Assembly: GCA_030654195.1 (NCBI GenBank)
Contig: JAURXV010000008.1
Span: 93 to 64,092 of the forward strand
Reading direction: 5' to 3'
Length of the DNA: 64,000 nt
DNA from: Syntrophales bacterium
Lineage (GTDB): Bacteria; Desulfobacterota; Syntrophia; Syntrophales; UBA5619
The notes below the pieces were generated by a model. The model made no database searches. It was not told the DNA's origin and saw nothing but the letters and a program-made list of their open reading frames with translations. Each line of letters opens with the position of its first letter. Positions within the stretch are counted from its first letter, which is position 1. Both the position numbers and the translations under genes were made by a program. This document shows, piece by piece, positions 28,954-42,089 of the stretch.

Positions 28954-30477
28954 ATGGTATTCCCTCTGTTGAGCACAATTATTTTTTTACCCCTGGGCGT
29001 TGCGCTTGTTTTGATACTGCTGCCGCGGAAAAACCCCCTTCTGATAAAGGTTTTTACCCTCATCTGGACGATTCTGGAATTTGGTCTCTCCCTCCCGCTG
29101 TTCTTCAATTTTAATGAAAAAACGGCGGGGATGCAGTTCATGGAAAACCTGGATTGGTTTCCCGAATTCGGCATCGGCTACATCCTCGGCGTGGACGGCA
29201 TCAGCATGCTCCTGGTGCTTTTGACAACCTTCCTCACCGTGCTGTGCGTGCTCTGTTCCTGGAACTCGATCACGGATAAAGTGAAGGAATACTATGCGTC
29301 GTTCCTGCTGTTGGAAACGGCCATGTTAGGCGCCCTCTGCGCACTGGATCTCGTCCTCTTTTACATCTTCTGGGAGCTGATGCTGGTGCCCATGTACCTC
29401 CTCATCGGGGTCTGGGGCGGCCCGCGCCGGATCTATGCGGCCATCAAGTTTTTTCTCTTTACCATGGTGGGCAGCGTGCTGATGCTCCTGGCGATCATGG
29501 CCCTCTATTTCCACTACGGCCGCGATACGGGGCTCTATACCTTCAACCTCCTGGATCTCTACAAGGCAAACATCCCGGTCATGAAGCAATACTGGCTCTT
29601 TGCCGCCTTTGCGCTCTCCTTCGCCATCAAGGTGCCGATGTTCCCCTTTCATACGTGGTTGCCCGACGCCCACACAGAGGCGCCCACGGCAGGCAGCGTC
29701 ATTCTGGCCGGCGTCCTGCTGAAAATGGGGACTTATGGATTCCTGAGGTTTGCCATTCCCCTCTTCCCGCAGGCCGCCTTCGCCGCGGCGCCGATCATCT
29801 CCATTCTCGCGCTGATCGGGATCATCTACGGCGCCATCATGTGCATCATGCAGACCGACCTGAAAAGGCTGATCGCCTACTCATCGGTCAGCCACCTGGG
29901 GTATGTGATGCTCGGCATCTTTGCCTTCAACATGCAGGGGCTGGAAGGGGGCATCTACCAGATGCTCAATCACGGCGTCAGCACCGGGGGGCTCTTCCTC
30001 ATCGTCGGCATGATCTATGAGAGACGGCATACGCGGATGATCGCCGACTTCGGCGGGCTTTCCAAAGTCATGCCGAGGCTGGCCGTTTTTTTCATGATCA
30101 TCACGCTCTCCTCGATCGCGCTGCCCGGCACGAACGGCTTCGTGGGCGAATTTCTGATCCTGCTTGGCGTTTTCAGAAGCAATATAAGCTATGGGGTGCT
30201 GGCCGCCTCCGGCGTCATTTTAGGCGCCGTGTACATGCTGTGGATGTTCCAGCGCGTCATGTTCGGACAGATTACGAAGGAGGAGAATAGAGGTTTAAAA
30301 GACATTTCGAAAAGGGAAACGGTCATCCTTTGCGCGATTGTCTTTTTCATATTTTTCATGGGACTCTATTCCCAGGCTTTCTTCAGGAAGATGGACGCAA
30401 CGGCCGCAGGCTATCTCCAGAACATGCAGACGAAAATTGCGAGTTACAATCCGGCGGGCCCGGTTCCATGGAGATGA
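28954..30477 (+). CDS. nuoM: NADH-quinone oxidoreductase subunit M
   Basis: 507 aa. FAIKVPMFPFHTWLPDAHTEAPTAGSVILAGVLLKMGTYG. Confidence 0.95.
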   Translation: MVFPLLSTIIFLPLGVALVLILLPRKNPLLIKVFTLIWTILEFGLSLPLFFNFNEKTAGMQFMENLDWFPEFGIGYILGVDGISMLLVLLTTFLTVLCVLCSWNSITDKVKEYYASFLLLETAMLGALCALDLVLFYIFWELMLVPMYLLIGVWGGPRRIYAAIKFFLFTMVGSVLMLLAIMALYFHYGRDTGLYTFNLLDLYKANIPVMKQYWLFAAFALSFAIKVPMFPFHTWLPDAHTEAPTAGSVILAGVLLKMGTYGFLRFAIPLFPQAAFAAAPIISILALIGIIYGAIMCIMQTDLKRLIAYSSVSHLGYVMLGIFAFNMQGLEGGIYQMLNHGVSTGGLFLIVGMIYERRHTRMIADFGGLSKVMPRLAVFFMIITLSSIALPGTNGFVGEFLILLGVFRSNISYGVLAASGVILGAVYMLWMFQRVMFGQITKEENRGLKDISKRETVILCAIVFFIFFMGLYSQAFFRKMDATAAGYLQNMQTKIASYNPAGPVPWR

Positions 30478-30490
30478 AAGGTAGGAAAAT

Positions 30491-31948
30491 ATGGTTGTCA
30501 TGAAACCGGAACTTGCCTTCGGTTGGATCATGCCGGAGATTGTGATTACGCTCTCCGCTGTTTTCATTTTACTGTTGTCCGCCTTTCGCCGGAAGAGCGA
30601 TATCGGGCGCCTTGCGGGCGGCGTATCGCTGATCGGCGCAGGTCTCGCGTTTTTCCTGACCTGCCGGTTATGGAACAGCGACGTCGACATCTATAACGGA
30701 CTTTACACGATCGACAACTTCGGCCTTTTTTTCAAGGCGCTGGTGCTGGTGATTTCGCTTCTCGTGACGCTGTTGTCGCTCCGGTACGTTGAACGGGAAG
30801 AGATGATCAAAGGTGAATATTACGCGCTGCTGCTGTTCGGCATCCTGGGCATGATGATCATGGTTTCCTCCAACCATTTCGTCACCATCTTCATCGGCCT
30901 GGAGGTCATGTCCATCGCAATCTATGTCCTTTGCGGCCTCCTGATCGGCAATCCCCGATCGGCGGAGGCCTCTCTCAAGTACTTTTTACTGGGGGCCTTT
31001 GCCACCGCCTTTCTGCTGTACGGCATCGCGCTGATCTACGGCACGACCGGCATACTGGATGTCCGCGAAATTGCGCGTTATGTGACCTCAGGAAACTTCC
31101 TGATTACACCCGCCTTCATGGCGGGGATGGCCCTGCTCATCGTGGGGTTCGGTTTCAAGACGGCCTCCGTCCCCTTTCATATGTGGACGCCCGATGTCTA
31201 TGAGGGCGCCCCGACCTCCATCACCGCGTATATGGCGACAGGCGTGAAGGCCGCGGCCTTCGGCGCATTTCTCCGGGTCTTCTACACGGCCCTCTACCCC
31301 TTTCTTACGGAATGGTCCGGCATGTTATGGATCATCGCCGTCCTGACGATGACCCTGGGAAACATCACCGCCCTGATGCAGAACGATATCAAAAGGATGC
31401 TCGCCTATTCCAGCATCGCCCATGCCGGATACATTCTGATCGCCTTCGCCGTCGGCGACCGGATTTTTTCCGCGAGTATTCTCTTTTATCTGCTGGTTTA
31501 CACTTTCATGAATATCGGGGCCTTTGCGGTCGTCATCCTTCTGGGTCGGAAAGAGGCGCCCAATACCGGCATCGAATCCTATGCGGGCCTCGCGACAAGG
31601 CACCCGATGATCGCGTTGGCGATGAGCGTTTTTCTGCTCTCGCTGGCGGGCGTCCCGCCCCTTGCCGGCTTTATGGGCAAGTTTTATGTCCTCAGCGACG
31701 CCATCAAAGCCGGATATTACTGGCTGGCGATCATCGGCGTACTCAACAGCGTGGTGGCCGTTTACTATTACCTCCGGGTCATCATGTACATGTATTTCAA
31801 GGAACCGGAAGGCGAGATCGGCAGAATGGATCTCTCTCCGGCCTACGCGGTCGTGATTGTAGTCAGCATCTGGGCGTTGATCCACATGGGCGTCTTCCCG
31901 CGCTCTTTCCTGCTGATCGCGAGGGAATCGGTCAACATTTTCATGTAG
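30491..31948 (+). CDS. nuoN: NADH-quinone oxidoreductase subunit N
   Basis: 485 aa (an alternative start at 30500 is possible). FKTASVPFHMWTPDVYEGAPTSITAYMATG. Confidence 0.95.
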   Translation: MVVMKPELAFGWIMPEIVITLSAVFILLLSAFRRKSDIGRLAGGVSLIGAGLAFFLTCRLWNSDVDIYNGLYTIDNFGLFFKALVLVISLLVTLLSLRYVEREEMIKGEYYALLLFGILGMMIMVSSNHFVTIFIGLEVMSIAIYVLCGLLIGNPRSAEASLKYFLLGAFATAFLLYGIALIYGTTGILDVREIARYVTSGNFLITPAFMAGMALLIVGFGFKTASVPFHMWTPDVYEGAPTSITAYMATGVKAAAFGAFLRVFYTALYPFLTEWSGMLWIIAVLTMTLGNITALMQNDIKRMLAYSSIAHAGYILIAFAVGDRIFSASILFYLLVYTFMNIGAFAVVILLGRKEAPNTGIESYAGLATRHPMIALAMSVFLLSLAGVPPLAGFMGKFYVLSDAIKAGYYWLAIIGVLNSVVAVYYYLRVIMYMYFKEPEGEIGRMDLSPAYAVVIVVSIWALIHMGVFPRSFLLIARESVNIFM

Positions 31949-32185
31949 GAAAAGATGGTCGGTTTCGCAAACAGCCACCTTACCCTCACCCCGGCGTTAA
32001 CCGATGTCCGGGCCATTCCGGGGATATCATATCGATCATCGGGAATTTCCCCCCCCCCCTTCACTTCCTTCGTTTTGCTGCATAAGCCTGCTCCGTTCCA
32101 AATTCTGCAATGCGGAGATGATGGCGGATCTGGAATACACGAAATTCATGGAAGAAAGTTATGGGATTCTTGAAGAGGGTGTTTT

Positions 32186-33088
32186 CTAATCGGCACGAAT
32201 GCCATAGAGATTGTTCGGTGGCGTGACGCCTCTTTTCTCCAAGGATACACTGCATTCCGTGAAATGCGGCTTTCCCTTGCGGTTATGGGCTACCAGCGCC
32301 TGAACCACCTCCCAGCTCACTTCATTTCTTTCTGCCATCATGGTGATCTCCTCAAGAGCAGTGCGATTGTCGAAAGATACGGGCCGATATGGCCTCGTGG
32401 AAGTCAAGGCGTCATAGATATCGCAGACAGCCACGATCTCGACCATGCGGTCATTCAGACTGATGCCCCTGGGATATCCCGAGCCGTTTCTTTTCTCATG
32501 GTGATCTCTGGCGACACGGGCGGCAAGATTCCCGATCTCCTGCGAGTAATAGCAGAGGAGAATATACCCTGCCATGGTATGATGTTCCAGGTTTTTTCTC
32601 TCGTCCCGCGTGAGAGGCGTCGTCTTCCTCAAGATTTCGACAGGAACACATACCTTGCCGAAGTCGTGCAGAGGACCGGTTGCCGCCTCTCTGATCCTGA
32701 CTCGATAATCGGGTACAAGCTCCTTGGAGAGAAGGATTGAAAAGGCAAATACCATCAGGATATGGCGGTAGGTGTACGGATCATTCTTTATAAAGTATTC
32801 CACGGAATCCAAAATAGGCCGGGCAAACTGTACCTTCTCCATTAATTCAATAACTTCAGCAAGATCATTCTCATTACTGAAGAGCGCATTACCGGGAGGC
32901 TGTCTAACAAAATGCAGGATGTCTTCCCTTACCGTTCCGAATTGCAGGAAGGGGGTTTTTTGTTGATCATCAGCTCTGCCGGAAGAGATGAGGGCATGCA
33001 AATCCTCTTCTGACAAGGTGGTTCCGGCAGGGAGCAGCATCTGTCTGTCCAATGAATAAACCGGGTAGCCGAGCGTCCATTTGGACAT
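32186..33088 (-). CDS. HD-GYP domain protein (putative c-di-GMP phosphodiesterase)
   Basis: 300 aa with a GGAGGA RBS. HDFGKVCVP...HHTMAGYILL...HHEKRNGSGYPRG, i.e. HD plus a GYP signature. Confidence 0.85.
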   Translation of the reverse strand: MSKWTLGYPVYSLDRQMLLPAGTTLSEEDLHALISSGRADDQQKTPFLQFGTVREDILHFVRQPPGNALFSNENDLAEVIELMEKVQFARPILDSVEYFIKNDPYTYRHILMVFAFSILLSKELVPDYRVRIREAATGPLHDFGKVCVPVEILRKTTPLTRDERKNLEHHTMAGYILLCYYSQEIGNLAARVARDHHEKRNGSGYPRGISLNDRMVEIVAVCDIYDALTSTRPYRPVSFDNRTALEEITMMAERNEVSWEVVQALVAHNRKGKPHFTECSVSLEKRGVTPPNNLYGIRAD

Positions 33089-33383
33089 CGAGATCCTCCG
33101 TTTATGAGATGAAACAATAGATACCCCTCTCGGGGGGCAGTGAAAGTACCGGAGTCCGGAAAGAGGCTATCCCCTTTTTCTTTGTGAAGTCAATACCTTT
33201 TTTGTCCAATTTCCCGCTGATGGCCCATTTCTCCGGAACAACGAGGGGGCCTGCGCCTGTTCCAGCCGGAAGCTTCTTTTGAGACACGGAATCCGGAATG
33301 CCGGTGATTAAAGGTTGAAAATCCGACCGTATCGAAGTATGTTCACTAAAAAAAAGGTATCTACGGTATCTATGGAGGAGAGC

Positions 33384-34250
33384 ATGTTTCACAAAACCCC
33401 CGGTCTGGCGGTCGTGGTTGTTGCGTTTCTTATCCTTGGCGCGGGCGGCTGCGTCGCCAAGAGCGACTATCTCCGGAAACAGGCCGAGGCCGATGCCCTG
33501 AACCGCGATCTGGCGGCCCAGACGGCGCAAAACGCCGACTTCAATGCGCAAATTGAAAAGTTGACTGCCGCGACGGAGGGGCTGATTGCCGATAAGAACA
33601 GACTGATTGTCGACACGGAGAGGCTTGAGAAGGAACGGACCGAGAGAGACGCCCGCCTGAACAGAATCACAGAGGAGACAAGCCGGACCATCGAGGAGCT
33701 GCGGAACCGGAACATCGAACTGGAAGGCGACAAGCAGATGCTCGCGGAAAGCATCTCCCTGTTGAAGAAAACGAAAGAGGTGGAGGTCCGGACGGTCAGC
33801 AAGACCTACGAGGATCTCCTCTCCGAGATGAAGAGCGAAATCGCGCAGGGGCAGATCGCAATTACCGAGCTTAAAGGGAAACTGACCGTGGATGTTGTGG
33901 ACAAGATCCTCTTCGACTCCGGTCAGACGGAAATCCGACCGGAGGGTCTGGGCGTGCTGAAGCGCGTCGTCGAGATTCTGATGACCGTGACGGACAAGGT
34001 GATTCGCGTCGAGGGACACACGGACAGCATCCCGATCGGAGGGGCCCTCGCAAAAAGGTATCCCACAAACTGGGAGCTTTCCGCGGCGCGGGCGCTCAAC
34101 GTCACCCGGTTCCTGGAAAAGGAGGGAATCGATCCCGCCCTGCTCTCGGCGGTTGCCTTTGGGGAACACCAGCCGATTGCCGAAAACGACACCCCCGAAG
34201 GGCGGGCGAGGAACCGCCGGATCGCGATCATCCTTCTGCCGAAAGAATAA
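33384..34250 (+). CDS. OmpA/MotB-family lipoprotein with coiled-coil region
   Basis: Frame of ORF 33315..34250. I prefer ATG 33384 (GGAGGAG 5 nt upstream). Lipobox LILGAGGC, a long coiled coil, and a C-terminal OmpA domain (VEGHTDSIPIG...NWELSAARALNV...GRARNRRIAIIL). Confidence 0.85.
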   Translation: MFHKTPGLAVVVVAFLILGAGGCVAKSDYLRKQAEADALNRDLAAQTAQNADFNAQIEKLTAATEGLIADKNRLIVDTERLEKERTERDARLNRITEETSRTIEELRNRNIELEGDKQMLAESISLLKKTKEVEVRTVSKTYEDLLSEMKSEIAQGQIAITELKGKLTVDVVDKILFDSGQTEIRPEGLGVLKRVVEILMTVTDKVIRVEGHTDSIPIGGALAKRYPTNWELSAARALNVTRFLEKEGIDPALLSAVAFGEHQPIAENDTPEGRARNRRIAIILLPKE

Positions 34251-34262
34251 TGAAAATGGGAC

Positions 34263-34442
34263 GGCTTCGTAAAAAGGTAGCAGGCAAGGCGTGCGAATCC
34301 TGAGGAATGAGGCGTCGGGGACATGTGGGGACACCTTGCCGCAAGGTGTCCCCAAGCCCAAAGGGATCGGAACGTGTCCCCGGAACACGCCGCAATGACG
34401 AAGGATGAAGCGCAACGCAACATCCGGACTTTTTACGAAGCC
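34263..34442. repeat. IR-flanked ~180-bp intergenic element (copy 2), carrying a nested GGGGACA palindrome
   Basis: Perfect 14-nt inverted repeat GGCTTCGTAAAAAG (34263-34276) / CTTTTTACGAAGCC (34429-34442). The right end CATCCGGACTTTTT matches copy 1. The internal 27-nt palindrome is at 34327-34353. Confidence 0.55.
34327..34353. repeat. 27-nt palindrome GGGGACA-N13-TGTCCCC (type I), intergenic copy
   Basis: GGGGACACCTTGCCGCAAGGTGTCCCC. Extra half-sites GGGGACA at 34317-34323 and TGTCCCC at 34375-34381. Confidence 0.8.
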
Positions 34443-34471
34443 GTTATAATGAATCGGAATCGGGCGCAAAC

Positions 34472-35542
34472 ATGACGGTCCTACCCAACATCCGTGACCT
34501 CTCCCTGGAGGAGATCGAGGTTTTAATCGCCAGCCTCGGCAAGGAGAAGTACCGCGCACGGCAGATCATGAAATGGCTTTACATCGGCGGTGCGACCTCC
34601 TTCGCGGAGATGACAACCCTAGCCCGGGAGTTCCGCACCCGGATGGAGGGGATCACCCGAATCGCCGAACCCGCAATCGACCGGATACAGACCGCGTCAG
34701 ACGGGACGAAAAAGGTCCTCTTCCGCATCGAGGAGGGTCTCTTCATCGAAAGCGTCCTGATCCCCGGACGGAACCACTGGACCGCCTGCATCTCAACCCA
34801 AGCGGGCTGCGCGATGGGCTGCCGCTTCTGCCTGACCGCACGGCAGGGGCTCAGGCGAAACCTCCTCCCCTCCGAGATCACCGGCCAGATGACGATGCTC
34901 CGGCGCCACACGCCCGAGGGGCCGGAGATCAAGAACATCGTTCTGATGGGAATGGGGGAACCGCTTGCGAACTTCGACCACACCCTGAAGGCGATCCGGA
35001 TCCTCACCTCCGATCACGGTCTCGGTTTCTCCAACCGGAAAATCACCGTCTCCACCTGCGGCATCGCCCCACTGATCGTGAAACTTGGAAAAGAGCTCTG
35101 CGTCAACCTCGCCATCTCGCTCAACGCCCCGGACGACCGGCGACGGGATGAGCTGATGCCCGTGAACCGGAAATACCCGCTGAGGGAGCTGCTGGCCGCC
35201 TGCCGGGACTACCCGATGCCGGGGCGGCGAATGCTGACCTTCGAGTACATCCTCATGGCCGGCGTCAACGACTCTCCGGCGGATGCGGAAAAACTGGCCC
35301 GCCTGCTCCGCGGCGTCCGCTGCAAGTTGAACCTCATCGCCTTTAATGAGTTTCCCGGTGCACCCTACCGGACCCCAACCCCGGAGGCGGTCTCGGCCTT
35401 TCAACAGGTCCTGCTCGACCGCCATTACACCGCCATCCTCCGCGCGAGTCGCGGCCGGGACATCCTCGCCGCCTGCGGCCAGTTGAGCGGTCAGACAGCC
35501 GCCGACAATGGATTCCCCGCGGTGGAATTCGGCAATATATGA
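34472..35542 (+). CDS. rlmN: 23S rRNA (adenine2503-C2)/tRNA methyltransferase, radical SAM
   Basis: 356 aa. RARQIMKWLY, the radical-SAM motif GCAMGCRFCLT, MGMGEPLAN, and C-terminal GRDILAACGQL. Confidence 0.9.
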   Translation: MTVLPNIRDLSLEEIEVLIASLGKEKYRARQIMKWLYIGGATSFAEMTTLAREFRTRMEGITRIAEPAIDRIQTASDGTKKVLFRIEEGLFIESVLIPGRNHWTACISTQAGCAMGCRFCLTARQGLRRNLLPSEITGQMTMLRRHTPEGPEIKNIVLMGMGEPLANFDHTLKAIRILTSDHGLGFSNRKITVSTCGIAPLIVKLGKELCVNLAISLNAPDDRRRDELMPVNRKYPLRELLAACRDYPMPGRRMLTFEYILMAGVNDSPADAEKLARLLRGVRCKLNLIAFNEFPGAPYRTPTPEAVSAFQQVLLDRHYTAILRASRGRDILAACGQLSGQTAADNGFPAVEFGNI

Positions 35543-35663
35543 ACAGATCCGCTTTACAACTTATCAAACATGAAGTATGTGATCATCGCTATCCTCTATT
35601 TTTCCCAAGTGCTTGATCGGATCCTGGTAGATGCATTTTCCAATCTTTTTCAAGGAGAAAAAA

Positions 35664-36230
35664 ATGAAGGTCGTTGCGTTTAACGGTAGCCCAAGAAAGG
35701 ACGGCAATACATCGATCCTGATCCATCATGTTTTCAGCGAACTTGAAAAACAGGGGATTGAAACCGATCTGGTGCAGCTCTCAGCAAAGGAAATTCATGG
35801 CTGCATCGCCTGTTACAGGTGCAGTCAAAACCCGGACCGGCATTGCGCTGTAAAAAGTGACGCAGCAAACGAATATATCGATAAGATGCTCGGTGCAGAC
35901 GGGATTATCCTTGGCTCGCCCGTCTACTTTCAGGATGTTACGCCTGAAATGAAGGCCCTGATTGATCGTACCGGTTATGTTGCGAGATCCAACGGCAGAA
36001 TGTTCAAGGACAAGGTTGGGGCATCCTTGGTTGCGTTGCGACGGTCAGGAGGGATTAGCACTCTTGACACCATGAACCATTTTTTTCTGAGTGGACAGAT
36101 GATCATTGTGGGTCGGGGAATCGCTTTCGGCCGGGAAATAGGTGAAGTAGAAAAGGACGATGAAGGGATCGGGCTCGTGAAATTACTCGGGCAAAAGATG
36201 GCCTGGCTACTTAAAAAAATATATGGGTAA
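35664..36230 (+). CDS. flavodoxin-fold NADPH-dependent FMN reductase / iron-sulfur flavoprotein (Isf)-like
   Basis: Frame of ORF 35631..36230, start at ATG 35664 (AAGGAGAAAAAA upstream). MKVVAFNGSPRKDGNTS and a compact Cys motif CIACYRCSQNPDRHC (CX2CX2CX7C). Confidence 0.75.
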   Translation: MKVVAFNGSPRKDGNTSILIHHVFSELEKQGIETDLVQLSAKEIHGCIACYRCSQNPDRHCAVKSDAANEYIDKMLGADGIILGSPVYFQDVTPEMKALIDRTGYVARSNGRMFKDKVGASLVALRRSGGISTLDTMNHFFLSGQMIIVGRGIAFGREIGEVEKDDEGIGLVKLLGQKMAWLLKKIYG

Positions 36231-36302
36231 ACGGGCTCATCAAACATTTATTGAAATGGCAGAGCGTCGAAAGTGGAGGGTATTTTGAGAAAGGAGAACG
36301 AT

Positions 36303-36554
36303 ATGGGTGAGCAAAAGGTTAAGATCTATTCAAGACCTGCTTGAGCATGGTGCATACAAGCAAAAGAGTTTCTTTTGCAAAAAGGTGTAGAAATTGAAGA
36401 GCATGACCTCTTGAAAAATCCATTGAGCAACGAGGAGATCCTTACATTGTTGACAACCAAAGACGGGCAGATGAGAGCGCCAATTATCACCCGGGGAGAT
36501 GAAGTTATTGTCTTTGGTTATAACCGGGACAAGTTGGGAAAATTGTTCCCGTAA
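36303..36554 (+). CDS. glutaredoxin-like (YruB-type) thiol-disulfide oxidoreductase with in-frame TGA at the first CxxC position: candidate selenoprotein (UxxC)
   Basis: Not in the ORF track. AGGAG RBS 6 nt upstream of ATG 36303. Reads MGEQKVKIYSRPA-[TGA 36342-36344]-AWCIQAKEFLLQKGVEIEEHD...GDEVIVFGYNRDKLGKLFP*. The only in-frame stop is the TGA, at the position of the first redox Cys. Confidence 0.7.
36360..36378 (+). promoter_or_regulatory. candidate SECIS-like hairpin for the Grx-like gene
   Basis: GCAAAAG-AGTTT-CTTTTGC, a perfect 7-bp stem starting 16 nt 3' of TGA 36342-36344, with GU in the loop. Confidence 0.35.
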
Positions 36555-36720
36555 GGACGATGTCATTGGACAGATAATGTGTTACCCCAAAACTGAAATA
36601 TTTTTCGGATTTTGCTTGCACAAAGACAAGGATGATGATAGCGAGGAACCACGACTCCGAGAGTTTAAATTTGTTTGAGTAATTCAACTTAACTTGGGTA
36701 GCGAAAAGGAGGAAGTGTCT

Positions 36721-39700
36721 ATGAATGTGACAAGGAGAAAGTTTATTCAGATCACCGGCGCGGTTGCCGCCGGGATCGCCGTTAGCGGCATGGGATTTGA
36801 CCTGTCTCCGGTCAGGGCCTACGCACTGACGTTAAAAACCAAGGATGCCAAGGAGACGACCACAATCTGCTGTTATTGTGCCGTCGGATGCGGAGCCATT
36901 GTGCATACCAGCAAAGATAAGGGCCGCGTCATAAACATTGAAGGAGACCCGGATCACGTTATAAACCGCGGTGCCCTGTGCTCAAAGGGTTCCGCCCTTT
37001 CTCAGCTTGCTGAAAACAAGAACAGGCTTACCGAGCCGATGTACAGGGCGCCCAATTCCAAGGAATGGAAGAAGGTGTCCTGGGGATGGGCTCTTGCCGA
37101 AATCACAAAAAAAATCAAGGCAACAAGGGAAGCTACATTCACCCTGAAAAATGCAAAGGGAGAAACGGTAAACAGGACAACCGCCATAGCCTCTGTCGGA
37201 AGCGCCGCACTGGACAACGAGGAATGCTGGATTTACCAGGCGCTCCTGAGATCCCTCGGGATTGTCTATATTGAACACCAGGCGCGTGTCTGACACAGCG
37301 CGACTGTCGCGGCTCTGGCAGAGTCGTTCGGACGCGGTGCGATGACGAACCACTGGATCGATTTAAAGAACAGCGACTGCATACTTATCATGGGAAGCAA
37401 CCCGGCTGAAAACCATCCCATCTCCTTCAAGTATGTCACTATGGCGCAGCAAAGCGGCGGAAAAGTCATTAGCGTAGACCCGAGATTCACAAGAACATCT
37501 TCAAAAGCCGACATTTATGCGCCTCTCCGTTCAGGCACCGACATCGCCTTTTTAGGAGGCATGATCAAATACATCCTGGACAACAAACTGTATAATGAAG
37601 AATACGTTTTAAATTACACGAACGCATCCTTCCTGGTGCACAATGATTACGGATTCAAAGACGGACTCTTTACCGGTTATGATCCCCAGGCGAAAAAATA
37701 TGACAAGAAAACATGGGGCTTCCAGGTAGATGAAAAAGGAGTCCCGAAAAGAGATCTGACACTAAAAGATCCGCGCTGTGTTTTCAATATTTTAAAGGAC
37801 CATTACAACAGGTATGATCTTGCTCTCGTTTCCAAAATAACCGGCACTCCGGAAGCAAATCTTCTGGAAGTTTACAAAACATATGCTGCAACCGGGGAAA
37901 AAGGAAAAGCAGGCACAAGTATGTACGCTATGGGCTGGACCCAACATACAGTAGGCGTCCAGAATATCAGGGCAATGTCTATTATACAGTCTCTGCTCGC
38001 AAATATGGGTATTGCCGGAGGCGGCATTAATGCCCTTCGCGGCGAATCAAACGTGCAGGGCTCAACAGACCAGGCCCTTTTATGGCATATCTGGCCGGGA
38101 TACACCGGAATTCCGACATCATCCGTAGCTTCGCTTGATGCGTTCCTCGCAAAAATCAAACCAACAACAAACGATCCGCTTTCCCTAAACTGGAAGCAGA
38201 ACTACCCTAAATATGCCGTAAGCATGCTCAAATCGTTCTTCGGCGAAAATGCCACAAAGGAAAACGAGTTTGGATACCAGTTGCTGCCGAAACCGGATGA
38301 CGGGAAGTCCTATTCTTGGCTTGATCTCTTTGATGAAATGTACAAGGGCAGTATCAAAGGATTCTTTGCATGGGGCATGAACCCCGCCTGCAGCAGTTCC
38401 AATGCCGGAAAAGTAAGGAAAGCCATGGCAAATCTCGACTGGATGGTCAATGTCAACCTGTTTGACAATGAAACAGGCTCGTTCTGGAAAGGCCCGGGAA
38501 TGAACCCTTCCAAAATAAAGACAGCGGTCTTTATGCTTCCGGCGGCAGTTTCCGTTGAAAAAGAAGGGAGCATCACAAACAGCGGCCGCTGGATGCAGTG
38601 GCGTTACCAGGGGCCAAAACCGCTTGGAAACAGCAAACCCGACGGCGATATCATCATGGAACTCGGGAATATGCTGAGGGAAGCGTATAAAAAAGGCGGC
38701 GGCAAGTTCCCGGATGCAGTTCTTAAACTCAAATGGGACTACATGACAGACGGCAAGTTTGATGCTCACAAGGTTGCAAAGGAAATTAACGGATACTTCC
38801 TTGAAGATGCGACGGTCAACAACCAGCAGTTCAAGAAGGGAGACCTTGTACCCAGCTTTGTATTCCTGCAGGCCGACGGCAAAACCTCTTCCGGCAACTG
38901 GATTTATTCCGGCAGCTATACAAATAAAGGGAATATGGCTGCAAGGCGAAGCCAGAAGGATGCCCCGAATAATATCGGGCTCTTCCCCGAATTTGCCTGG
39001 GCTTGGCCGGTAAACAGAAGGATTATCTACAATCGCGCCTCGGTTGATTTAAAAGGCCGGCCCAATGACGAAAAGAGATGGGTAGTTAAATACACTTTCG
39101 AACAAAAGGAAGGTAAATATGTTCCGGGTAAATGGGAAGGAGATGTTCCCGACGGACCCGCACCTCCGCTCCAGAACCCGGACGGAACGGCCAGAACAGA
39201 CGGCAAATACCCGTTTATCATGCAGAAAGACGGGTTTGCCGCTATTTTCGGCCCAGGCCTTACCGACGGTCCGCTGCCCGAGCATTATGAACCGCTCGAG
39301 TGCCCTGTCGAAAAGAACTTCATGAGCGCCCAGCGCGTTAACCCTACTGCGCCTGTTTACGGCACCGATGCAGACGCGTTTGCATCATGCGATCCGAGAT
39401 TCCCTTATGTCGGCACAACTTACCGGGTTTCGGAGCACTGGCAGACCGGTCTCATGACGCGCCCGCAGGCATGGCTTCTCGAGCTTCAACCGCAGGTATT
39501 TGTTGAAATGAGTGAAGAACTTGCCAAGCTCAGAGGCATAAAGAACGGTGAGCGTGTCAAAGTCTCTTCCGTGCGCGGCGCATTGGAATGCACTGCAGTC
39601 GTCACCAAGCGCTTCAAGCCCATGGAGATCGGAGACACCATAGTTCATCAGGTCGGAATGCCTTATAACTACGGATGGCGCTGGCCCGTAAGCGGCAAGG

Positions 39701-39804
39701 AGGAAAGCGCAAACCTGCTTACACCGTCAACAGGCGATCCCAATACCAGAATTCCTGAAACCAAGGCATTTATGGTCAATATATCAAAGATAAAAAGGGG
39801 GTGA
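36721..39804 (+). CDS. fdhA: periplasmic formate dehydrogenase catalytic subunit, Tat-exported, selenocysteine-containing
   Basis: Joins ORFs 36694..37293 and 37342..39804 through TGA 37291-37293. Context YIEHQARV-U-HSATVAALAESFGRGAMTNHW is the classic FdnG/FdhA Sec site. AGGAGG RBS before ATG 36721. Twin-arginine signal TRRKFIQITGAVAAG...VRA. Confidence 0.92.
37291..37293 (+). other. UGA selenocysteine codon of fdhA
   Basis: In-frame TGA between EHQARV and HSATV. The reading frame is continuous on both sides. Confidence 0.9.
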
Positions 39805-41486: not shown

Positions 41487-42089
41487 TTATTTCTTTTTTA
41501 TTTTTTTCATCTCCATCACCAAAGCCCCGAGTTCAGGCCTTTTATTTATATCAGCCACATAGGCATATCTTATTATTCCTTCCTTATCTATTACAAACAG
41601 TGCTCTTTCGGTTACGCCACTTGTCCGGAGAACGCCATAAATATCTGCGACCGCTCCGTGGGGCCAGAAATCGGAAAGAACGGGAAACCACAATTTTCCC
41701 ATCTGGTTTGTCCATGCATAGAGGGTCGGAATATTGTCAACGGTGATTCCAAACAGGATTACGTCATTTTCATCAAAAAAGCTCCTGGCAAGATTGTATC
41801 CCGGCCACTGGTCCGAACAGACAGGAGTCCATGCAGCAGGGACAAAAGAAAGAACCACATTCTTTTTCCCCTTATACTGGCTGAGGGAAATTCTCTCTCC
41901 AGATATGGCTGGAAGCGTAAAGTCCGGAGCAGGATCACCCACTTTTACCTTAAGAATGCTGTCAAAGGGTTTTAATTCCCCCGGGTTATAAATGTTGTTC
42001 TTATATGCATCGGACAGTCCGAAAGCCGGGCCGCTAATTACGGCAAACGCTATAACCACAGTAATACCTTGTATAATATGCTTAAACAT
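41487..42089 (-). CDS. exported peroxiredoxin (AhpC/TSA / redoxin family)
   Basis: 200 aa with a signal peptide (VIAFAVISGPAFG). KKNVVLSFVPAAWTPVCSDQWP holds the peroxidatic Cys motif. Confidence 0.85.
   Translation of the reverse strand: MFKHIIQGITVVIAFAVISGPAFGLSDAYKNNIYNPGELKPFDSILKVKVGDPAPDFTLPAISGERISLSQYKGKKNVVLSFVPAAWTPVCSDQWPGYNLARSFFDENDVILFGITVDNIPTLYAWTNQMGKLWFPVLSDFWPHGAVADIYGVLRTSGVTERALFVIDKEGIIRYAYVADINKRPELGALVMEMKKIKKK

Follow-up and report, generated by a model that had tools for sequence, protein, structure and literature searches.

Does a TGA codon near the start of a short reading frame end a protein, or does it encode selenocysteine (Sec) at the active site of a longer one? 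The question arises in a 64,000-nucleotide (nt) stretch of contig JAURXV010000008.1 from a Syntrophales bacterium (assembly GCA_030654195.1), referred to here as the window. On its + strand, positions 36303 to 36554 read MGEQKVKIYSRPA-TGA-AWCIQAKEFLLQKGVEIEEHDLLKNPLSNEEILTLLTTKDGQMRAPIITRGDEVIVFGYNRDKLGKLFP-TAA, an 83-codon frame with a single in-frame TGA. Judging from sequence comparisons, this segment is very probably one gene, which would encode an 83-residue glutaredoxin-like oxidoreductase of the U-x-x-C type, with UGA translated as Sec at residue 14 through a Sec insertion sequence (SECIS) lying within the open reading frame (ORF) itself.

A reading frame interrupted by one TGA

In conceptual translation, the coding sequence of this glutaredoxin-like selenoprotein (36303..36554, +) has 83 residues, the interval including the TAA stop codon at 36552-36554. 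It opens with an ATG at 36303, preceded after a 6-nt spacer by the Shine-Dalgarno sequence AGGAG (36292..36296, +); GGAG-type sites are also found ahead of the ATG in orthologues L001, L002, L004, L009 and L011. The TGA at 36342..36344 (+) is predicted to specify Sec at residue 14, the first position of a U-A-W-C motif, as suggested by conservation in orthologues and by Cys homologues. The TGC at 36351..36353 (+) encodes Cys17, the presumed resolving Cys of UxxC, which is specified by TGC or TGT in all 22 orthologues compared below.

An original prediction, made by reading the letters of this DNA, had described the same frame, TGA and translation, and all of its coordinates and residues hold. 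The features placed around the frame are likewise present: the AGGAG 6 nt before the ATG, a 7 base-pair (bp) hairpin at 36360-36378 starting 16 nt past the TGA, which ViennaRNA extends to 8 bp, and a Sec-containing fdhA about 165 nt away, for which we measured 166 nt. As to conventional ORFs, the prediction was right that the mechanical ORF list (minimum of 40 amino acids, aa) contains an antisense ORF of 78 aa (36330-36566), but this is not the only entry: a 59-aa + strand ORF (36375-36554, starting at TTG 36375) and another antisense ORF, of 54 aa (36326-36490), are listed as well. Standard gene callers were expected to miss the gene, and databases do carry it as truncations of 58-59 aa.

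Conservation of the TGA in orthologues and its counterpart in Cys homologues

Ten matches came from a word-indexed search covering 5.8 billion proteins. Seven of them (including P0001, P0003, P0004, P0006, P0007 and P0009) are 58-59 aa long and begin at Gln26 or Lys27, just past the TGA; two others, of 67-68 aa, likewise begin past it. One 59-aa form is labeled 'hypothetical protein' at NCBI. The tenth match, P0002, has 83 aa and a W at the Sec column: in the corresponding DNA (L001) this W is a TGA, called with another code table (table 4).

DNA was compared for the loci of the protein matches, for the full-length genome loci L012 and L013 and for 21 metagenome loci. The resulting orthologue set comprises 26 loci, corresponding to 22 distinct nucleotide sequences of 81-83 codons, whose products share 51-95% identity with the window protein (tblastn). 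Each of the 22 starts with ATG and has its TGA at column 14, followed by a Cys at column 17. Upstream of the TGA, K7, I8, Y9 and P12 are invariant and are each written with two to four different codons; this variation in synonymous codons implies that the segment upstream of the TGA is translated and selected as protein, sharing its frame with the part downstream, which is also conserved with synonymous variation. The position of the TGA is beyond chance: it falls in the same column in 22 of 22 orthologues, and the hairpin motif described below always comes with a TGA exactly 18 nt upstream (68 of 68 occurrences in 442 kb of compared DNA).

No Cys-containing orthologue was found, either by the search of 5.8 billion proteins or when 1.84 billion cluster representatives were scanned exhaustively with HMMER; in the latter scan, each match with E < 1e-10 was a truncated 59-aa form or a Cys glutaredoxin-like protein of 35% identity. 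More distant proteins do have Cys at the TGA column. Full-length homologues at 30-43% identity present an xPTC-x-x-C motif with its first Cys at this column, and the same holds for glutaredoxins in the PDB (including 7c10) and for Spx. In a profile-profile comparison with 20 Cys YruB-like proteins, the alignment covers the full length with both Cys columns matched (E = 1.6e-29). The Cys homologues thereby place the TGA where it had been predicted to encode Sec, at the first CxxC position of a glutaredoxin-like gene.

Two further observations concern sequences around this family. A W occupies the first active-site position (for example, TPTWPHC) in the remote glutaredoxin-like proteins P0020, P0022, P0026, P0039, P0045 and P0046; by the precedent of P0002 and L001, these are probably further TGA/Sec genes translated with table 4. 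The sequence at L031:92-339, which shares 80% identity with the window gene, contains an additional in-frame TGA at the W16 column as well as frameshifts after codon 27, and corresponds either to a decaying pseudogene or to a poor, low-coverage assembly.

A SECIS-like hairpin with frozen synonymous codons

The predicted in-ORF SECIS (36360..36378, +) is formed by arms GCAAAAG (36360-36366) and CTTTTGC (36372-36378) around a central AGTTT. ViennaRNA folding adds one A-U pair, yielding an 8-bp stem (GCAAAAGA/UCUUUUGC) with a GUU apical loop, and the element codes for AKEFLLQ. Its first position is the 16th nt after the TGA (15 nt lie between), or 18 nt from the U of UGA. In the L002 orthologue, the loop is GGU. 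A small apical loop containing G is a common feature of bacterial SECIS elements (PMC1088965). The window holds a second such hairpin, about 950 nt downstream, which is the SECIS of fdhA: it has an 8-bp stem and a 3-nt loop, GGC, and starts 18 nt from the U of UGA. The two elements thus have the same geometry (stem length, loop size and offset), and both loops begin with G.

Aligning the 22 orthologues codon by codon reveals next to no synonymous variation at codons 20-25 (GCA AAA GAG TTT CTT TTG). All 22 sequences use CTT for Leu24 and TTG for Leu25; the other invariant Leu columns (41, 47 and 78) use four to six codons. The sole variants among the hairpin codons, GCA to GCG and AAA to AAG, convert A-U into G-U and keep the pairing. 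When several related families are included, 45 of 46 distinct segments combine TGA with an intact hairpin. The remaining segment, L015, is the single sequence with TGT (Cys): its AKEFLLQK peptide is kept, but its CTG CTG codons break two central pairs, and it is the only one of the 46 sequences with unpaired cells. Because the related families were sought with degenerate back-translated patterns, the search itself did not favor any codon choice.

The orthologous loci had been proposed as the place to look for a conserved stem-loop and for signs of a recent nonsense mutation. TGA and hairpin turned out to be both conserved there, and neither TGC/TGA polymorphism nor any recent-truncation pattern was seen among the orthologues.

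Several observations weigh against the Sec interpretation. The AU-rich hairpin does not stand out in free energy from shuffled sequences (z = -0.95); therefore, its stability alone is no evidence. It matches no Rfam SECIS model even at E <= 10 in a permissive scan of 36250-37450, where the sole SECIS match is a weak, sub-threshold one of SECIS_3 to fdhA (35.6 bits, E = 5e-6); at gathering thresholds, an Rfam scan of the whole window returned nothing. Pair counts reveal no two-sided compensatory changes, only A-U to G-U, so that covariation is uninformative, neither for nor against the structure. The hairpin codons also encode a conserved peptide, and part of their conservation is thus protein constraint, while loss of the hairpin in a Cys form is known from one sequence, L015, which belongs to the related, longer ArsC/Spx-like family described below. 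The argument for constraint at the RNA level rests on the frozen synonymous sites and on this Cys form. Beyond the hairpin, SelA, SelB and SelD are absent among the 20 ORFs scanned in the 64-kb window, no tRNA, and so no tRNA-Sec, was found in it, and the protein reaches no curated NCBIfam cut-off, though many glutaredoxin-like and ArsC/Spx-like models match it.

Protein family and predicted fold

Profiles were scored against the window protein with U replaced by C. Pfam Glutaredoxin (PF00462) matches residues 6-69 over all 60 profile positions, with 43.0 bits against a gathering score of 22.9. The top NCBIfam match, YruB (TIGR02196), scores 53.4 bits for a cut-off of 88.55, and two other family members, with YruB scores of 54.4 and 44.6 bits, likewise attain none of the curated cut-offs. 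Scores similarly fall short of the cut-offs for Uxx_star (NF041212, 44.7 bits vs 66), arsC_related (TIGR01617, 41.2 vs 75), ArsC_rel_Se_1 (NF041106, 34.1 vs 85), NrdH (TIGR02194, 31.1 vs 85.75) and Pfam ArsC (PF03960, 22.9 vs 24). No match to ribonucleotide-reductase families was found among the adjoining ORFs and those scanned elsewhere, which cover part of the window.

An AlphaFold2 model was built on P0002 with a 49-sequence alignment, and its mean predicted local distance difference test score (pLDDT) is moderate, at 73.9. The model has a strand at 6-10, a helix at 15-26, a strand at 31-35, a helix at 42-52, strands at 61-64 and 67-71 and a helix at 75-81, a modeled topology which is that of glutaredoxin: beta-alpha-beta-alpha-beta-beta-alpha. 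Residue 14 stands directly before helix 1 (15-26), and Pro60, nearly invariant across homologues, precedes strand 3. The best PDB match of the model by Foldseek is 7c10, 'Dithiol cGrx1', at 30% identity and with template modeling (TM) scores of 0.74/0.81; Spx, NrdH and other glutaredoxins follow (TM ~0.7). An R-x-P loop and the motif HD-x-x-K-x-P-L-S-x-E-E-I bring the protein nearer to ArsC/Spx than to classical glutathione-binding glutaredoxins. Since the loop reads R-x-P rather than T-V-P and the motif is ArsC/Spx-like, we consider a dependence on glutathione doubtful.

Proposed mechanism

In bacterial Sec insertion, SelB binds a hairpin just 3' of the UGA. By analogy, we propose that translation starts at ATG 36303 and would not terminate at the UGA at 36342: the hairpin at 36360-36378 may act as a bacterial SECIS and recruit SelB with Sec-tRNA(Sec), so that Sec would be placed at residue 14. 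The catalytic cycle may likewise be modeled on CxxC thioredoxin-fold chemistry. Sec14, at the N-terminus of helix 1, would face the conserved Pro60 loop, and its selenolate would make a nucleophilic attack on an oxidized substrate, be it a disulfide, a sulfenate or a selenenylsulfide. The resulting intermediate would be resolved by Cys17 into an intramolecular selenenylsulfide, to be re-reduced by an upstream reductase.

Genomic context and alternative explanations

The glutaredoxin-like gene is followed, 166 nt downstream, by the start of fdhA (36721..39804, +), which encodes the alpha subunit of a Sec-containing formate dehydrogenase; the TGA of fdhA (37291-37293) stands in the canonical context HQARV-U-HSATV, with its SECIS hairpin at ~37309-37327. 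The presence of a Sec-encoding fdhA in the same window lends indirect support to the view that the host decodes UGA as Sec. A screen of the window for other genes with in-frame TGA was crude and too noisy to use. An Rfam match to CRISPR-DR35 on the - strand inside fdhA (36962-36997) is sub-threshold (24 bits vs a gathering score of 35, E = 0.049) and most likely due to chance.

The original prediction had also paired the gene with the formate dehydrogenase, and one may ask whether it encodes a dedicated accessory or maturation factor of this enzyme. Of the alternatives considered, this one is the least improbable, and it is still very unlikely and is rejected here. The two genes are on the same strand, 166 nt apart, with no terminator-like site detected between them. 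However, the pairing dissolves in orthologous loci. Positions 30001-36692 of the window share 88-95% nucleotide identity with L012, from the metagenome-assembled genome (MAG) 'Proteobacteria bacterium KR13_N2.mb.84', and the common stretch includes genes for Mrp/Nuo-type antiporter subunits, RlmN, an NADPH-dependent FMN reductase and the glutaredoxin-like protein. Synteny stops just downstream of the latter: where the window has fdhA(Sec)-fdhB-fdhE, L012, at 92-95% nucleotide identity up to 36692, has no fdh operon and presents a NiFeSe hydrogenase operon instead. A 40-bp relic of the ribosome-binding site and start of fdhA can be recognized in L012 (L012:6642-6681, vs window 36689-36728). At other orthologous loci the neighbors are unrelated: an MFS transporter, a ferritin, an EamA transporter, an amino-acid permease, an epimerase, a MutY-like protein and a cytochrome P460 gene. 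Across the orthologous loci compared, no gene neighborhood is conserved beyond close relatives. Synteny not being conserved, the adjacency to fdhA is incidental.

Slightly less likely again is that UGA is read as Trp, Cys or Gly, by near-cognate suppression or under an alternative code, with no Sec involved. The W found at this column in P0002 and in several remote matches would fit such a reading, but the W of P0002 is an artefact of the code table: the DNA has TGA, and the locus fails to give the query under table 11. TGA moreover ends 18 of the 44 long non-overlapping ORFs of the window, where it is the commonest stop, and the L002 orthologue itself ends in TGA; as TGA acts as a normal stop, a genetic code in which it is a sense codon is excluded. 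An ordinary residue would also leave unexplained a conserved SECIS-like hairpin at the offset seen in the Sec-encoding fdhA, and a nucleophile replaced by Trp would no longer support the CxxC chemistry conserved among the Cys homologues.

We see little room for the TGA being a true stop, with the 59-residue ORF from TTG 36375 as the product and the 13 upstream codons as a leader peptide or non-coding sequence. Gene callers do produce exactly this, proteins of 58-59 aa starting at Gln26 or Lys27. Yet such a product would be deprived of strand 1, of the entire UxxC motif and of most of helix 1; its internal start would lie inside the hairpin, with no ribosome-binding site ahead; and all 22 orthologues retain, in frame and with synonymous variation, the 13 upstream codons together with the ATG and its ribosome-binding site.

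A recent pseudogene, in which a nonsense mutation from TGC to TGA would have struck an otherwise ordinary gene of glutaredoxin-like type, is effectively refuted: a single base change turns TGC or TGT into TGA, and L031 looks degraded, but the TGA is fixed in all 22 orthologues down to ~51% identity, both halves are under purifying selection, and the searches of 5.8 billion and 1.84 billion proteins found no Cys orthologue. Equally improbable is that the antisense 78-aa ORF (36330-36566, -), the longest conventional ORF over this stretch, is a real gene, as its frame contains one to six stops in orthologues (one orthologue has a stop-free antisense frame, in another register) and third-position variation fits the + frame.

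With the Sec-encoding gene retained as the preferred reading, some of its neighbors deserve mention. A gene for an NADPH-dependent FMN reductase (35631-36230, +) ends 72 nt upstream, in the same orientation, and L012 shares this linkage; a gene for an AhpC/TSA peroxiredoxin (41487-42089, -) lies ~5 kb downstream. Both proteins are possible candidates for redox partners. A region containing an HD-domain gene (window 32135-33299) is absent from L012.

The same active-site module in other architectures

Scans of genomes and metagenomes uncovered three other groups with the same U-x-x-C-x-x-AKEFLLQK peptide and the same hairpin. One is an ArsC/Spx-like family of ~115 aa with the motif F-[YF]-C-W-x-x-U-x-[TA]-C-R-[KQ]-AKEFLLQK, in which TGA is accompanied by an identical SECIS hairpin (loci L014, L016-L024, L046-L055, L057-L067 and L069; for example, L017:5959-6306). 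Its hosts are Dehalococcoidia, Smithella and other deltaproteobacterial MAGs, and it remains below the NCBIfam cut-offs (TIGR01617, 72.6 vs 75.05; NF041106, 37 vs 85). The two other occurrences are a YruB-like fragment carrying the module as KIYTTPT-U-PYC (L056:1825-1929) and a glutaredoxin-like sequence with an inserted segment, where it reads FGHKA-U-PIC (L068:3390-3650). None of the four module-bearing architectures reaches a curated NCBIfam cut-off, and hosts are split between delta-/Proteobacteria plus Smithella, on the one hand, and Dehalococcoidia MAGs, on the other.

We may tentatively hypothesize, as a possibility less likely than its opposite, that the 81-83 aa proteins form an obligately Sec subfamily, proposed because no Cys orthologue was found, and that their active site with the 19-nt in-ORF SECIS constitutes a portable module used across at least four thioredoxin-fold architectures. 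If so, several selenoprotein families would derive from a single Sec-bearing ancestor, with a sub-domain gained or lost on the way, or the module would have spread laterally. Descent of the window family from the ArsC/Spx-like Sec family by deletion of a helical sub-domain was considered and is not favored, as the YruB-like comparison (E = 1.6e-29) beats that with the long family (E = 3.9e-20). Given the shared SECIS module, such a descent is less likely rather than excluded.

Significance

This family is stored in public databases as 'hypothetical proteins' or fragments of 58-59 aa, or with a W at the active site from code table 4. A Sec-aware family model would recover both the window family and the ~115-aa ArsC/Spx-like family. 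With this gene, the known selenoproteomes of anaerobic, deltaproteobacterial-type organisms gain another UxxC redox selenoprotein, and the knowledge of Sec decoding and of glutaredoxin chemistry stays unchanged. The gene does provide an unusually clean natural case of RNA constraint within an ORF, two Leu codons being fixed, each at one of the six available, in all Sec forms and both altered in the single Cys form. Of greatest interest among the side results is the near-invariant U-x-x-C/SECIS module itself, found across four thioredoxin-fold architectures.

Comparison with known systems

Sec-containing proteins with a glutaredoxin or thioredoxin fold were already recognized as a class in the original prediction, and the literature bears this out. 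Sec-containing UxxC glutaredoxins have been reported since 2005-2006 (PMC1088965, PMC1794560), and 'Glutaredoxin (Grx), PF00462, UxxC' is listed as an experimentally verified selenoprotein family (PMC13188914). The cGrx1 protein of Clostridium oremlandii is a native U-P-x-C selenoprotein that was crystallized as the Cys form (PMC7642778).

The window protein most resembles cGrx1 (PDB 7c10/7c12), its best PDB match when sequence and structure are taken together: both have a small glutaredoxin fold of ~75-85 aa, with the first residue of UxxC, at the N-terminus of helix 1, being Sec (predicted in the window protein). Identity is only ~30%, however, and the window family differs in several respects. 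In place of U-P-x-C it has U-[AKTGV]-[WSGA]-C, the usual T/V-P loop of glutaredoxins is replaced by M-R-x-P-I/V, and a conserved C-terminal motif reads G-Y-N-R-[DE]-[KR]-L. Unlike cGrx1, the family is hosted by deltaproteobacterial-type MAGs and has no MsrA partner nearby.

Among profiles, the closest are the Cys forms of YruB (TIGR02196), which align over the full length at 35% identity with no large gap (hhalign, E = 1.6e-29). Unlike YruB, the window family has Sec, with no Cys member found in our searches, and it scores below the TIGR02196 cut-off.

With ArsC/Spx-family proteins and selenoproteins, including the ~115-aa U-x-T-C family, the window family shares the U-x-x-C-x-x-AKEFLLQK module with its identical SECIS hairpin, the motif HD/RD-x-x-K-x-P-[LF]-[ST]-x-x-E-I and the R-x-P-[IV] loop. 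By sequence, the window protein finds its best PDB match in Spx (3l78), in two pieces. The hhalign alignment with the long ArsC/Spx-like family (E = 3.9e-20) contains a 34-residue gap, corresponding to a helical sub-domain of the ArsC/Spx fold that the window protein lacks.

The UXX-star families (NF041212, NF041114 and NF041211) are also small glutaredoxin-like proteins or selenoproteins, and give weak profile matches, all below cut-offs. As their name implies, they have Sec three residues from the C-terminus, whereas the only TGA of the window gene is at codon 14 and the protein ends in KLFP-TAA.

As the window protein exceeds the Pfam PF00462 threshold but reaches that of no narrower curated family, we consider this gene to be a further member of the known class of Sec-containing glutaredoxins and, arguably, the representative of a new subfamily.

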